DNA of 64,000 bases, taken from the NCBI RefSeq assembly GCF_030013205.1, contig NZ_CP122648.1; one strand, written 5' to 3'. Position numbers: made by a program. Source of the stretch: Escherichia coli (lineage in GTDB: Bacteria; Pseudomonadota; Gammaproteobacteria; Enterobacterales; Enterobacteriaceae). Positions 27,001-33,000 of this stretch are shown here, one piece after another. The number at the start of each line of letters is the position of its first letter. The first letter of the stretch is position 1.

Positions 27001-30000
27001 CAGACTCTATCAGACTAATAAATTTAGTATTTGTATCAACTTTAATATCATTTGGCGCAAAACTTTGCAGTATTTTTTTAGCTTGTGATACTCTTGTTTC
27101 ATAAACAGGTTGTTCATCGAATGTTGTTTTATCGAGATTCTTATTATGAGCTGTATTGTTTATATTGCTAATATTATTGGTCATTTTTGAATCCTCTTAT
27201 ACGATAGAATGAGAAGCAAATTTCAAAGCTTCAGTTCGGTGTTGTAATACACGCACCATCTGAGCTACCTCTTGTTCGACGGTTTTATCTATCCTTTGCA
27301 TCACTGTAAGCATTTGTTCGCGCGTTTTTGATAGATTGCTTATATCTTGTTGTAGAATTTCGATATCTGCAGACTTACTGGCAGCGTATTGATTCATGCT
27401 CGATGTAATTATTGTACAAACGCCCGAGGCAATTTTTTCAAGAAGAATAGTTATTTTTGCAAATATCATTATAAATTGTGATGATGCTTTTATTTTGTCA
27501 CCGAGAAAATTTAATGCTGACATGATTTTTTTTGATACTGACTTGATCATAGATTCCACGGTGGATTTTATACTGTCAGTTATTTCTTTTGTGATTTCTT
27601 CGGCGGCAGTTTTTGAGAGTGCCTTTACAAGTTCACTTATTGCTACTGAACAAATTAATGTTGCACCAATCATTAATGTTATCATAACAATAGAAGCGGC
27701 TGCAGATGAGTAAATATCTTGTACTAAATCAATAGTCGTTTGTTGGACACCCAAGGCGTCCAGAAGAGCGCAGATTGCGAGTAGTGTGGGGTCATATTTA
27801 GAAATAATACCCGCAAGACCTTCAGTTAGTTTTCCCAAAATCCAACCGGTAGCCGTGGTACCCAGAGTGATTTGACAAATAATATCAACACCTAATACTA
27901 CTGCCCCCGCGATTCCTCCAATTAGTGCCAGCGCTCCAGCAAAGCTTGCCCCAGCACTTGGAACTGCTGCGACAATACCAATCACAATTAAGGCTGCACT
28001 TACGGCAAAGGTAACTACAGTAACGACCTCATTAATAATGTTTAAAACTTTTGTCCATGTAGTATAGCTGCGTGCTGTTTTATTGAGTTTATTTTCCCTG
28101 ACATGGTTAATCTCTTTCATTACCTCAGACTGATTTTTAATAGAGTCGCAATTGGTATCGCCAATAACTTCCATTACTGAGGTAATCAAAAGGATAAATG
28201 TGGCTGTCGCGTTTCTGTTTTTCTGGTTTTCCTGTGTCAGGCAAATATTGGTGGTGAAGTTATTAATCTGTTCTTGCTGTTGAATTTCATCAAAAATCTC
28301 CATACTTTGGCCGATCGCAGCATCAGCATCCATAATGGCTGTATTTAACGATTGCTCAGCTAACGATTTTTTTTGTAATGACAGCGTGAGTGTTTTTTCA
28401 GCCGCATTTTTTTGCGTCAGTACTTTATTATATTGCGGATCGCCAGGTTGCAGTTGCGACAGCTCTTGATTCAATGTATTGACTTTTTTCTCCAGCGATT
28501 GCACCTTTTTATCGACCGTATTGTAATTATTATTGGCCTGATGCATGATGTCGTCGGCTTTTTGCGCGGAATCTAATGACGAGGAGTAAGCGTCACTTAA
28601 TTCACGAAACTTATTATGTGCCATTTCGTGTCGAAGCAGGGTGCTGTCAAGGTTATTATGCAAACGTGTTGTAATATCCTGATCGGCAATGCCTGTTAGA
28701 TTACCCAAAATCATCGTCAGGCGGGCATCGTTCGTCTTTGCTGTAGTGGCGTTGTCGGAATCTGAAACCTGCATTTCAGGCGGAGCAAGCATAGGTTTGT
28801 TTTCAAGACGAGTGCGAATATCGTTATCAAGGGACTTCGGGTTTTTATTAAGCCGCATGGGATCAACTTGCGTTTTGTTGCTGTCCTGCAGTCTTTTTTC
28901 CGCATCGCTATACTGTGTGCGCAATGTTTCGCTGATTTGTTCAAACGTGATCGTTTGTCCCGTAATCGGTGCCGACATAATTCACCTCCTTTTTAAGCTA
29001 TCATCGGGTGTAATTAATTCTTTTTTATTTAACTCATGGCAGATGTTTATTCCCATCTAAAATGGCATCAACGGGAAAGTAAGTAATGTGTTTATTGTTA
29101 TTCTTCTCATTTATTTTATCGCCATGGTTATTTTTTAAATCAACCGGGGCTTCCTCATGATATTTCCTGATTAACTCTTCAGGCGTAAAAGAAGAGTTTT
29201 TTCCGTTTATGTTCATTTTGCCGACTCACTCTGTTTGAACTTCCTCTTCGGTATTGGCTGTCAAGAGTTCAAGATAAGCAGTAGCCATCTCTTTAACTTT
29301 TTCATTTTGGCTGTAGGTTACGACTGTATTAAATAACTCCGTGGCCATTTTAGTGTTTTTTAAGCCCATCTGGCACTGGCCCATATAATAAACCAAAGAG
29401 AAATCGTTATCGGGAGATAGCATTAAACAGATATGATACATGTCGAATGCCTTTTGATAATCTTTCTTCAACTGACAGACGGCGGCATATCCTTTTAAAT
29501 AGTTATAATTTTGGAAATCATAAATACAGAGAAATTTAAAAAAGAGCTCAGCTTCGTCAAGTCTTCCTTTTTCATAAAAGTTATAAGCGTAAGCATAAAC
29601 GCCTTCAAGGGTATCCGGAGTAATGCCATGCAGCTCTGCAAGTGTTGCTCCCATACCTAATGCACGTTCGAACTTACTGGCAATTTCTTTATTTTCTTCT
29701 AAATCCAGATTTGCGCTTTCCATCTCTACTCTCTCCTTTCGAACATTCTTTGTTCAGACTTCACCATTTTTTAGAGGGTGGTGATATCAAAATTCGCTCA
29801 TTTTTATGCCCATCCGTTGGGCTTCCTTTTCTGCATTAAAAACAAGTATTGTTTCAATGAGATAAGATTTTCTATGTGATGAAATGAAAACAATGTAGAG
29901 GGAAATTCCTCCACAATCCTGATGAACGGGTGCAATTTTGATTGGAATTTGAAAAAGCAGGTGATTTACTGATGTGCGAGCGTACGTCAGCGGCTGCTGG

Positions 30001-33000
30001 CCTGAGCGCGGAGGTGTGCGAAATTCACATATCCGGGCATTCCACCTTACCCAGCGCTTCCCAGTAGTTATTCTGATTATTACGCTCCATCGCCACAATA
30101 GCTTCGCGGATATGTTGTTTGTTATTCTCATCAGACAACATTAATTTTTCCCACGCTTCGTCTGATAATGACGCCTGTGGCGTGCAAATTTTACGTAAAT
30201 CTTGCAATACCGTGGTCTTTTCTTTTGCCGACTGTAGAGAACTGAATGGCGATTCGGCCTGAGAAATGGCTGGGAAAGTCAGGAATACGGTAATCATGAG
30301 TAGCATCGTTGGCTTCATAGCTGCAACCTTCTGCAAATGTGCATCGAATGAAGCATAAGTGTAGTTTGCTTTTGCCGCTCTCATCATGCTGTACGAAAGG
30401 TGTTTGCGTGGTCAGTAAGAAGTGCCAGTTTTATATACCTTTTTCTTCTATTCGATAGCTTTTCGTTTTTTAAATCGTAGTGATCTTGCCATTATAGTCA
30501 GTTAACGATTAAAAAAAGGATAAAAAAGTGAAACTGACAACACATCATCTACGGGCGGGGGGCGCATTATTACTGGCAGGAATTCTGCTGGCAGGTTGCG
30601 ACCAGAGCAGCAGCGATGAAAAGCACATTAAAGTGGGCGTTATTAATGGCGCAGAACAAGATGTCGCGGAAGTCGCTAAAAAGGTGGCAAAAGAGAAATA
30701 TGGCCTCGATGTTGAACTGGTAGGATTTAGCGGTTCGTTGCTACCGAACGATGCGACAAATCATGGCGAGCTTGATGCGAACGTCTTCCAGCATCGACCC
30801 TTTCTTGAACAAGATAATCAGGCGCATGGTTATAAACTGGTAGCGGTGGGAAATACGTTTGTCTTCCCCATGGCGGGTTATTCCAAAAAAATCAAAACAG
30901 TGGCGCAAATAAAAGAAGGCGCGACAGTGGCGATCCCCAACGACCCGACCAACCTTGGTCGCGCGCTTTTACTGTTGCAAAAAGAGAAGCTAATTACTCT
31001 GAAAGAGGGAAAAGGGTTACTACCTACCGCGCTGGATATAACCGAGAATCCTCGTCATTTGCAGATTATGGAACTCGAGGGGGCGCAGCTCCCGCGCGTA
31101 CTGGATGATCCCAAAGTTGATGTGGCGATTATCAGCACCACTTACATTCAGCAGACCGGGCTTTCTCCGGTGCACGACAGCGTATTTATTGAAGATAAAA
31201 ATTCGCCGTATGTGAATATTCTGGTGGCACGGGAAGATAATAAGAATGCAGAAAACGTGAAGGAATTTCTGCAATCTTATCAATCGCCCGAAGTCGCTAA
31301 AGCGGCAGAAACCCTCTTTAACGGTGGCGCGGTGCCTGGCTGGTAATTCTCACTCATGCCGCGCCGGACGATTTATTTTTCTGGCGCGGCGGCGAGAATC
31401 CATTGAAATCAAAATCACCGATGACAGAATCAGCAGCGTTCCCAGCCAGTCCGGCAATGTGAACGTGATCCCCAGCAACAGCAAAGAGAGCAGCGCGCTA
31501 CTTAATGGTTCTGCACAGCTCAGAATGCTGGCTTTTGGCCCGCCAATTAATTGTGCTCCTTTCAGGTACAGACTAAATGTCAGGGACGTACCAATGACCA
31601 CCAAATAAAAAAACGCCAGAATCAAACTGCCGTTAACGACAAAGTTTGTCCCTTGTCTGGCATAAAAAGGCAACAGAATCAGACCGCCGATCAGCATACT
31701 CCAGCCGACGACCGGTAACGTGCCATAGCGGGCAATCAGCGTTGAGGGATAGGTGGTATAGAATGCCGCAGCAAATGCCGAGGCAATGCCCCAGAATAAC
31801 GCGGCCGGAGAGATCGATAATGACGTCGGATTACCGTGTGTCACCAATATAAAAGTTCCGATCAGCGATGTCAAAATAGCGCAGAAAACCAGAATGCCCG
31901 GGCGAGATTTACGCACCAGTGAGAACCAGGCGACGATAATCGTCGGTGAGAGGAATTGCAGCACCGTTGCCGTGGCAGCATTCGATTTTTCAATGGTTAG
32001 CAAAAAAGTGAGCTGTACGGTTAGCGCGCCAACCACGGAAAAAATCAGCAGACTAATGGCATCTTTGTGATTGTTAATAATAGAAAAGATTTTATCGCCA
32101 TGAACAAATGACAGCGTCAGCAGAATCAAACCGGCGAATATCAAACGCGTCATAGTCAAAAACTGCGACGACATCTGGCTTTGCTCCATGATGTATTGCG
32201 CGCAGACCCCTGAACTTCCCCACAACACGGCGGCAATCAGAACGTTCAGCATCCCCTTTCTGGTGGAACCCATTTTTCCCTCTGCATACTGTTTTGTCGT
32301 TTATGTATGCAGGCATGATAGCAAAAATGGCGAGGATGGCTCTGTTTGCGCCACGCCGATTTTTCTTAGCTCAGACTGGTGAGCTAAATATCTTTAATAA
32401 ACAGCAGGCAAATCATCGCAATACCCAGCATTCCTATCGCCAGCCAGAACAACGCGTGGTAGCTCCAGATTTCAACCATAATTCCGTCAACAGAGCCGGC
32501 GATAATCCAGCCGACGCGTGAAGTATTTGCATATAACGTTGTCGCAGAGCCTATTTTTTCAGGCATCAGGTCCTGAAAATAAAGCATGCCGATACCACAG
32601 AGAATACCAAGGAAGATGGCATTTAGAATTTGCAATTCCAGCTCAACTACCGGAGTCGTCGCCATGAGTACGCTGGCGTAAAAATACATACCACTCACGA
32701 TAGCAATGAGCATTAATAGTCGCTTGCCAATACGTTTCATGTAATAGCCTGCGATTAACATCATCGGAATTTCCAGACCGGCAGCAATACCAATCATTTC
32801 TCCAGCCAGTTTATCGGTTAGATGCAGTTCATCAATAATAAATAGCGGCATATTTATCATGTAGAGATTATTCGCCGCCCACATCATTGAACAAACCACG
32901 AAAAGTAGCCGTGTATCCCGCTTTCTATGGATGGAGGGTAAAATTTCTACGGGTTGGGTAACGACAGGAATATTTCTTTGTATTGATGGCAAAAACAACC

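Follow-up and report, generated by a model that had tools for sequence, protein, structure and literature searches.

An InvF/MxiE-type box upstream of eicA in Escherichia coli: a candidate activator-dependent promoter for the chaperone-translocator operon of the eip island

We analysed the intergenic region between yicS and eicA, the latter being the first gene of a chaperone-translocator operon, in a stretch of 64,000 nucleotides of Escherichia coli DNA (contig NZ_CP122648.1 of assembly GCF_030013205.1), which is called the window below. This region contains a 17-bp box of the InvF/MxiE type, TGAGCGAATTTTGATAT (29784-29800, minus strand), which is conserved in Escherichia albertii, belongs to a family of boxes found upstream of sicA-family genes and lies at the family spacing from a -10-like hexamer. 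By its sequence, the predicted promoter is thus a further member of the known InvF/MxiE-type class. We propose, with a probability of roughly 0.6, that the eicA-eipBCD promoter is activator-dependent, that its box would be bound by the InvF homologue EivF with the chaperone EicA as co-activator, and that the HilA-family regulator EilA would act mainly upstream of them; the argument draws on sequence comparison and on analogy with related systems.

The box begins 77 nt 5' of the eicA ATG, on the same strand, as in the Salmonella sicA promoter (PsicA) and upstream of other sicA-family genes. In the register of the MxiE box (GTATCGTTTTTTTAnAG, in which G6 and T10 are essential; PMC9769918) it retains C5, G6, T9-T12, A14 and A16. 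It shows the characters by which an InvF/MxiE-type box can be recognised, i.e. CG in positions 5-6, T residues running from about position 8 to 12 and A14/A16; it lies in coding-strand position upstream of a chaperone gene of a T3SS (type III secretion system); and a cognate activator of the InvF/MxiE family and a chaperone of the SicA/IpgC family are encoded in one genome, that of strain CFSAN018748, whose island is identical. A predicted -10 hexamer, TGAAGT (29758-29763, minus strand), is found 20 nt past the box and is preceded by TGG. From its position, transcription is predicted to start at about 29751 ± 3 (29748-29754, minus strand), which would make the leader about 28 nt long; the Shine-Dalgarno sequence 8 nt before the eicA ATG, AGGAGA (29732-29737, minus strand), is strong. 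No consensus sigma-70 promoter was found on the eicA strand within the region, as expected of an activator-dependent promoter. The first-pass annotation had placed the regulated promoter of the chaperone-translocator operon here, and the box, the family-spaced -10 hexamer, the short leader, the Shine-Dalgarno sequence and the lack of a competing sigma-70 promoter support that placement in silico, with a start site that is predicted.

In E. albertii, the same yicS-gap-eicA arrangement is found, with EicA proteins that are 70 % identical. The two intergenic regions are only 48.9 % identical overall and 40 % identical in their distal part, and the box is the same in both species, as part of a perfectly conserved block of 24 nt that comprises an A-tract and the box (TAAAAATGAGCGAATTTTGATATC, 29783-29806, minus strand). 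A perfect run of this length was reached in none of 20,000 column shuffles of the alignment. The other conserved pieces are ATGGTGAAnTCTG, which includes the predicted -10 hexamer, AGAATGTT, and the Shine-Dalgarno sequence, whose GGAGA is kept. In two other E. coli strains, single-nucleotide polymorphisms leave the box, the -10 hexamer and the leader untouched. The strongest constraint in the region thus falls on the InvF/MxiE-type box, and the earlier statement that no operator motif is visible here is superseded by a 17-bp box and a -10 element that are conserved well beyond chance.

In loci of the Burkholderia group and of enterobacteria, related boxes were found upstream of sicA-family genes. 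Boxes resembling TGAGCGATTnnTGAATG occupy this position in Providencia (TGAGCGATTTTTGAATG), Burkholderia (TGAGCGTTTTTTTAACG in B. dolosa), Chromobacterium, Aeromonas, Sodalis and others, with TGAGCGATTccTGAATG-type boxes in Chromobacterium, Aeromonas, Sodalis relatives and others, and TGAGCGATTTTTGATAA lies upstream of a contig-borne gene whose chaperone product is 52 % identical. In nearly all of these relatives, a -10-like hexamer starts 19-22 nt past the box; with the other E. coli boxes counted in, about 25 promoters have this spacing. A box that ends about 20 nt before the -10 hexamer would overlap with -35, the place that published work assigns to the InvF site and to the MxiE box (PMC7595419, PMC9769918).

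A position weight matrix (PWM) was built from 18 non-Escherichia sicA-family boxes and used to scan the 127,968 positions of the window. The eicA box ranked 7th, with 0.016 matches expected in the intergenic region. A coding-strand match at least as good as the eicA box was present within 300 nt upstream in 23 of 38 non-Escherichia sicA-family loci, a count that is partly circular because 17 of those sites fed the PWM; the same loci gave no match on the reverse strand, nor did coding-region controls give any. With a PWM made from three published chromosomal MxiE boxes, the eicA box ranked 5th of 127,968 and the five boxes of the window took ranks 1 to 5; over the published-box PWMs, its rank varied from 5 to 9. 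With a PWM of pINV-type MxiE boxes alone it was only 345th, and this difference (rank 5 versus 345) indicates that the eicA box is of the chromosomal/InvF subtype. Five occurrences of the pattern TGAGCKNNTTTTGATAK were counted in the 64-kb window, where 0.05 are expected, and about 56 kb of unrelated core DNA had none. A literature string search with the box sequences returned no relevant paper; Sheikh et al. 2006 lay outside its reach.

The published boxes to which the eicA box was compared are those of yccE (TGAGCGATTTTTGATAG), yfdF (TGAGCGTTTTTTGATAG) and yjgL (AGAGCGTTTTTTGATAT) (PMC9769918, Table S2), of which the first two were validated by the mutation G6>C/T10>A (PMC9769918). The eicA box and that of yccE differ at 2 of 17 positions, G6 and T10 being retained. 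It fits the pINV subtype (GTATCG...TTTTTTTAnAG) poorly, and no match to the canonical pINV MxiE box was found in the intergenic region when up to three mismatches were allowed. Among the other boxes of the window, described below, that of eilA is identical to the yfdF box and both boxes of the ilvN-uhpA interval are identical to the yccE box, i.e. they belong to the Shigella chromosomal MxiE subtype. The Shigella chromosomal boxes respond to plasmid-encoded MxiE-IpgC, whereas in the E. coli and E. albertii strains that carry the eip island the only homologues are EivF and EicA/YgeG.

The closest parallel is Salmonella PsicA. The box of the genuine PsicA (subsp. diarizonae and arizonae), TGGGCGTTTTTTGAATG, is in the same register as the eicA box and identical to it at 11 of 17 positions. 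The two promoters occupy orthologous positions, each immediately upstream of its translocator-chaperone gene, and in each a -10-like hexamer lies 20-22 nt past the box; E. coli encodes both an InvF homologue and a SicA homologue. They differ in that the predicted -10 hexamer of eicA is much weaker than that of PsicA. In pathogenicity island 1 of Salmonella (SPI-1), sicA comes after spaS, and HilA-driven read-through from the inv/spa operon reaches it as well; in contrast, the eicA operon lies on a separate island behind the unrelated core gene yicS, so that the box promoter is probably its only dedicated input. Other AraC-type activators that are co-activated by chaperones include YsaE-SycB of the Yersinia Ysa system and BsaN-BicA of Burkholderia. 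In such systems the activator gene usually adjoins the chaperone gene, whereas in E. coli eivF, at the glyU locus, and eicA, at the selC locus, are unlinked.

The intergenic region (29724-30024, minus strand; 301 bp, 39 % G+C) lies 5' of eicA in the direction of eicA transcription, and coordinates and annotation confirmed the earlier description of a gap of about 300 bp bounded by the yicS stop codon. eicA (29226-29723, minus strand; ATG at 29723-29721) encodes a translocator chaperone of 165 amino acids of the SicA/LcrH type (SicA/IpgC type) and heads the operon eicA-orf60-eipB-eipC-eipD, and all eip open reading frames (ORFs) are intact in the window. On the other side, yicS (30025-30318, minus strand) is a core gene of 97 codons according to PGAP, and its stop codon, TGA at 30027-30025 on the minus strand and TAA in K-12, forms the island junction. 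The match to island-free E. coli, K-12 included, begins exactly at 30027; the whole intergenic region is therefore island DNA, and whatever drives eicA came with the island. The locus corresponds to the eip (selC-B) island of PMC7058095 and PMC11068852; its G+C content is 30-45 %, and it was found in 727 of 5426 complete genomes.

The candidate activator, EivF, is encoded in ETT2 (type III secretion system 2 of E. coli) in CFSAN018748, a strain whose island is 100 % identical over the queried interval 29200-30500; its best NCBIfam match is InvF (E 1.8e-54). ETT2 of the strain analysed here lies outside the window. EicA is 45.8 % identical to SicA and 42.7 % to IpgC, whereas the second SicA-like chaperone, YgeG, reaches 38.1 % for both (the IpgC sequence having been entered by hand), and eicA stands directly before translocator genes, as do sicA and ipgC. 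In Salmonella, InvF acts directly on sicA, through a site that overlaps the -35 position (PMC7595419, PMC5013294). By homology with InvF-SicA and MxiE-IpgC, EivF would bind the eicA box at a class II-like promoter, with the box at about -49 to -33, overlapping -35, followed by the -10 hexamer at 29763-29758, a start near 29751 and about 28 nt of leader that include the strong Shine-Dalgarno sequence. Free EicA would be the co-activator of EivF. The operon would thus be under positive autoregulation and, plausibly, linked to secretion activity. The sequences show the box with its conservation, family membership and spacing, whereas the start site, the protein that binds and the part of EicA as co-activator are what we infer here.

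EilA would act in this scheme mainly upstream, through activation of eivF. It is a HilA-family regulator (NCBIfam HilA/EilA, E 2.4e-287), and it was reported by Sheikh et al. 2006, as relayed by citing papers (PMC4210603, PMC7058095, PMC11068852), to affect eicA, eipBCD, eaeX, eivF and eivA. Since eivF is among the genes that it is reported to activate, along with the eip genes, its effect on eicA may be largely indirect. The operator points the same way: unlike the HilA-box promoters PprgH and PinvF-1, the conserved operator of the eicA region belongs to the AraC/chaperone class, and an operator that is of the InvF/MxiE type and not recognisable as a HilA-family site points to direct control by EivF with EicA and to EilA acting through eivF. 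As eilA has the same kind of box, EilA itself would be fed back on, and this box would close a positive loop on EilA. The suggestion of the first-pass annotation that the region is EilA-responsive therefore agrees with the expression data as they are cited, while the operator is not recognisable as a HilA-family site. Dependence on eilA, or eilA-deletion data alone, does not separate direct from indirect control.

Several points weigh against this model. Among the E. coli boxes, that of eicA is the weakest, with A at position 8 and T at position 17 and a PWM score of 13.3 versus 23 for the others, and its low rank with the pINV-type PWM and the circularity in the count of sicA-family loci belong here as well. 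The predicted -10 hexamer, a weak match at 3 of 6 positions that lacks the A at -11, is the weakest of the set, and the spacer between box and -10 hexamer is longer by one base in E. albertii. In a published test, EivF with YgeG was negative on icaR and icaT, EicA not being included (PMC9241512), so EivF may not use the eicA box at all. Chromatin immunoprecipitation sequencing of InvF detected no binding at Salmonella sicA (PMC5013294). Several ETT2 apparatus genes are frameshifted in CFSAN018748, the strain with the identical island. Finally, counter-silencing of the nucleoid protein H-NS, discussed below, could be the real mode of action.

The best-placed alternative, which we consider unlikely, is that EilA, through its OmpR-type DNA-binding domain, binds the intergenic region directly and activates eicA, the box being incidental or secondary. 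The dependence of eicA and eipBCD transcripts on EilA, published by Sheikh et al. 2006 and known here through citing papers, is what it would predict, and a second conserved block, TCATCAGGATT (29915-29925, minus strand; about 115 nt 5' of the box), is shared by this region and the sequence upstream of eilA in E. coli as well as in E. albertii, relatives of it lying 7 nt 5' of the eilA box in the two species; a similar sequence, TCATCATAATT, is found upstream of eprH, the prgH homologue. The block is a candidate site for a second factor, possibly EilA, although neither in the window nor in ETT2 is it more frequent than chance would give, and its further copies fall inside genes, so that it constitutes a weak lead only. 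A HilA box would be a direct-repeat site upstream of the -35 position, and a repeat search of the region found no convincing conserved direct repeat. A de novo motif search over six upstream regions putatively controlled by EilA/YgeH (eicA, eilA, iatC, eivF, eprH and ygeH) did not rise above shuffles, with 19 shared-motif seeds against a shuffle mean of 9.8 (range 1-24). Two further candidates for an EilA site were rejected: TTCATCA is common throughout the window (29 matches), and YCATCASRATY is not enriched and has extra matches inside genes. In SPI-1, moreover, HilA reaches sicA via invF and read-through and not by binding PsicA (PMC5013294), and the strongest constraint in the eicA region lies on the InvF/MxiE-type box. 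Direct binding by EilA is compatible with the proposed role of the box, and both could operate.

A less probable alternative still is that the box is mainly a counter-silencing site, i.e. that H-NS silences the AT-rich region and that an AraC-type factor or EilA relieves this silencing instead of recruiting RNA polymerase. The base composition of the region, 39 % G+C within an island of 30-45 % G+C, would suit such a role. H-NS silences MxiE-box genes including yccE and yfdF, MxiE becoming dispensable once H-NS is depleted (PMC9769918), and it represses ygeH and ETT2 in enteroaggregative E. coli (EAEC) 042 (PMC4210603). Against this stand the observation that InvF-SicA is still needed at Salmonella sopB when H-NS is absent (PMC7595419) and the fixed spacing between box and -10 hexamer across many genera, which suggests direct contact with the polymerase. 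Least probable of all, and by a reading that we hold very doubtful, the box would be a decaying relic and the operon would be expressed, if at all, by yicS read-through or another weak promoter, which would suit the weak -10 hexamer, the below-average box score, the unconserved terminator-like hairpin after yicS, the frequent inactivation of ETT2 and eip genes (e.g. IS2 in eipD and ETT2 frameshifts in CFSAN018748) and the clearly dead box known at 33773, but which sits poorly with the conservation of box, -10 block and leader between species whose flanks are at about 40 % identity and with the intact state of all eip ORFs in the window.

The hairpin in question, TGTGGAGGAATTTCCCTCTACA with a U-rich tail, lies 3' of yicS (29884-29915, minus strand, the hairpin itself at 29915-29894). 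Its role as an insulator against yicS read-through is doubtful: it is weakened in strains MS6198 and F1140 and absent from E. albertii, which leaves room for read-through from yicS into eicA. A terminator-like hairpin on the plus strand (29808-29822) is not conserved in E. albertii and was treated as a chance occurrence. No Rfam match at E ≤ 1 was obtained in or around the region; the leader RNA was no more stable than its shuffles (z = +0.88), and neither did the 161-nt stretch past the yicS stop fold better than shuffles (z = -1.17). The box region (29787-29806) and the predicted -10 region (29754-29773) form a 20-nt direct repeat, 70 % identical over copies 33 nt apart (TAAAAATGAGCGAATTTTGA and TAAAAAATGGTGAAGTCTGA on the minus strand), and this may represent a second half-site or an extended -10 element. 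The sequence GGTGA also precedes the -10 hexamer in both ilvN-uhpA promoters and in the ygeF promoter.

Further boxes were identified in the window. The first, TGAGCGTTTTTTGATAG (24533-24549, minus strand), lies in the eipD-eilA gap about 75 nt before the eilA ATG and is identical to the yfdF/icaT box. A terminator-like hairpin, GGTCCC-N7-GGGACC, with a U-rich tail (24609-24627, minus strand) follows eipD and parts the eip operon from the eilA promoter; E. albertii has a different hairpin at this place. In an E. albertii-like scaffold, the eicA box is unchanged and TGAGCATTTTTTGATAG, in which G6 is A, is found at the matching place before eilA (position 9706); these two boxes are the two best PWM matches in 15 kb of that scaffold. 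These sequences suggest that the AraC/chaperone pair may feed back on the HilA-like regulator eilA.

Two copies of TGAGCGATTTTTGATAG, identical to the yccE box, were revealed by the pattern scan upstream of two uncharacterised paralogous genes inserted between ilvN and uhpA: one (1607-1623, plus strand) precedes a gene of 431 codons (1837-3132), the other (3215-3231, plus strand) a gene of 485 codons (3386-4843). A -10-like hexamer is present 20 nt past each box (TGAAAT and TGCAAT, with the same offset as TGAAGT of eicA). Of 5426 E. coli genomes, 1109 matched some part of this islet and 638 had 80 % of it or more. Neither protein had a sequence match in Pfam, NCBIfam or PDB, and all homologues were 'hypothetical' proteins of E. 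coli, those of the 431-residue protein being 60-95 % identical to it. The AlphaFold model of the 431-residue protein is modest (pLDDT 60, residues 1-43 disordered); compared with PDB, the model matched only the type III effectors EspG and VirA (25 hits, E 1.6e-7 to 3.9e-5, with TM-scores of only 0.3-0.44), the next hit being at E 0.2. Since virA carries a MxiE box (PMC9769918) and the predicted fold resembles EspG/VirA, the two genes are candidate effector genes of the ETT2 regulon, their products being candidate T3SS effectors on the strength of this model.

A degenerate box, TGAGCTATTTTTGATAG (33773-33789, plus strand), lies between setC and the rhuM remnant/selC (tRNA-Sec). Its essential G6 is replaced by T, and it has a -10-like TGATAT and no intact gene after it; it probably remains from an effector promoter that was lost. 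In the ETT2 of CFSAN018748, the only perfect copy of TGAGCKNNTTTTGATAK is located 85 nt upstream of ygeF-ygeG, near ygeH (27902-27918 of the retrieved locus, minus strand), which may place a second SicA-like chaperone (YgeG), and possibly a second HilA-like regulator (ygeH), in the same regulon. An exact scan of metagenome contigs with TGAGCGATTTTTGATAG revealed recurrent E. coli contexts with a -10-like hexamer 19-21 nt past the box, i.e. yccE, the espX1 region, a 697-aa pentapeptide-repeat protein resembling PipB2/SopA and other pentapeptide-repeat proteins. In related metagenome contigs of the same scan (position 7506 in one of them), an exact box also precedes a gene for a protein of about 604-617 residues, in which a SopB/IpgD-like CX5R motif, GCKSAKDRT, was recognised by reading of the sequence; sopB is a classic InvF target.

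Concerning the surroundings of the eicA region, the gene order in a complete E. coli genome with 100 % identity at this place is iatC/eaeX, eilA, eipD, eipC, eipB, the 60-aa ORF, the SycD/LcrH chaperone gene (eicA), yicS, nlpA, yicL, setC and tRNA-Sec. In K-12, which has no eivF, eicA or eilA, nepI and yicS are convergent with 40 bp between them. The yicS stretch (30027-30500) is only 82.8 % identical to K-12, and a divergent core yicS allele thus appears, from sequence, to be linked to the island. The 60-aa ORF between eicA and eipB (29034-29216, minus strand) is annotated as hypothetical and has no family match; a 70-aa ORF is called at its position in E. albertii (4519-4731 of the retrieved locus), in contrast to SPI-1, where no gene separates sicA from sipB. 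A RelE/ParE toxin and helix-turn-helix antitoxin pair (14015-14681, minus strand) lies between yicN and nepI, and an IS3-family element with two transposase ORFs (34580-35853, minus strand) lies next to the selC region; CFSAN018748, a strain otherwise identical, is without this copy and has IS2 inside eipD instead. Contig JAIJJM010000039.1, labelled 'MAG: Collinsella sp.', carries an eicA that is 99 % identical to that of E. coli, box included, and is almost certainly a mis-binned E. coli contig.

The main value of the box is that it ties the eip and ETT2 genes to the chromosomal 'MxiE-box' genes and so gives a testable regulon hypothesis. We tentatively suggest, at somewhat less than even odds, that the chromosomal 'MxiE boxes' (those of yccE, icaT/yfdF, icaR/yjgL, the espX1 region and others) form the native regulon of the cryptic ETT2/eip secretion system, which works through EivF with EicA, rather than YgeG, and are not acquisitions of the Shigella plasmid. 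If so, this regulon would comprise eicA-eipBCD, eilA directly and ygeH through ygeF-ygeG, with the corresponding feedback loops, and orphan effector candidates that include the two ilvN-uhpA proteins with the predicted EspG/VirA fold; the negative result published for EivF with YgeG would then be explained by the wrong chaperone having been used in strains that lack eicA. ETT2 occurs widely among E. coli, and lineages of clinical importance, ST69 and EAEC 042 among them, have it intact; according to reviews, its effectors and secretion activity are still not identified (PMC11068852, PMC7058095). A defined operator at eicA, eilA and ygeF, of the type of the yccE and yfdF boxes, would offer a way to switch the system on (EivF with EicA) and a sequence tag by which the ETT2 regulon and its effectors may be found, and it offers a possible reason why commensal E. 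coli retain 'MxiE-box' genes.

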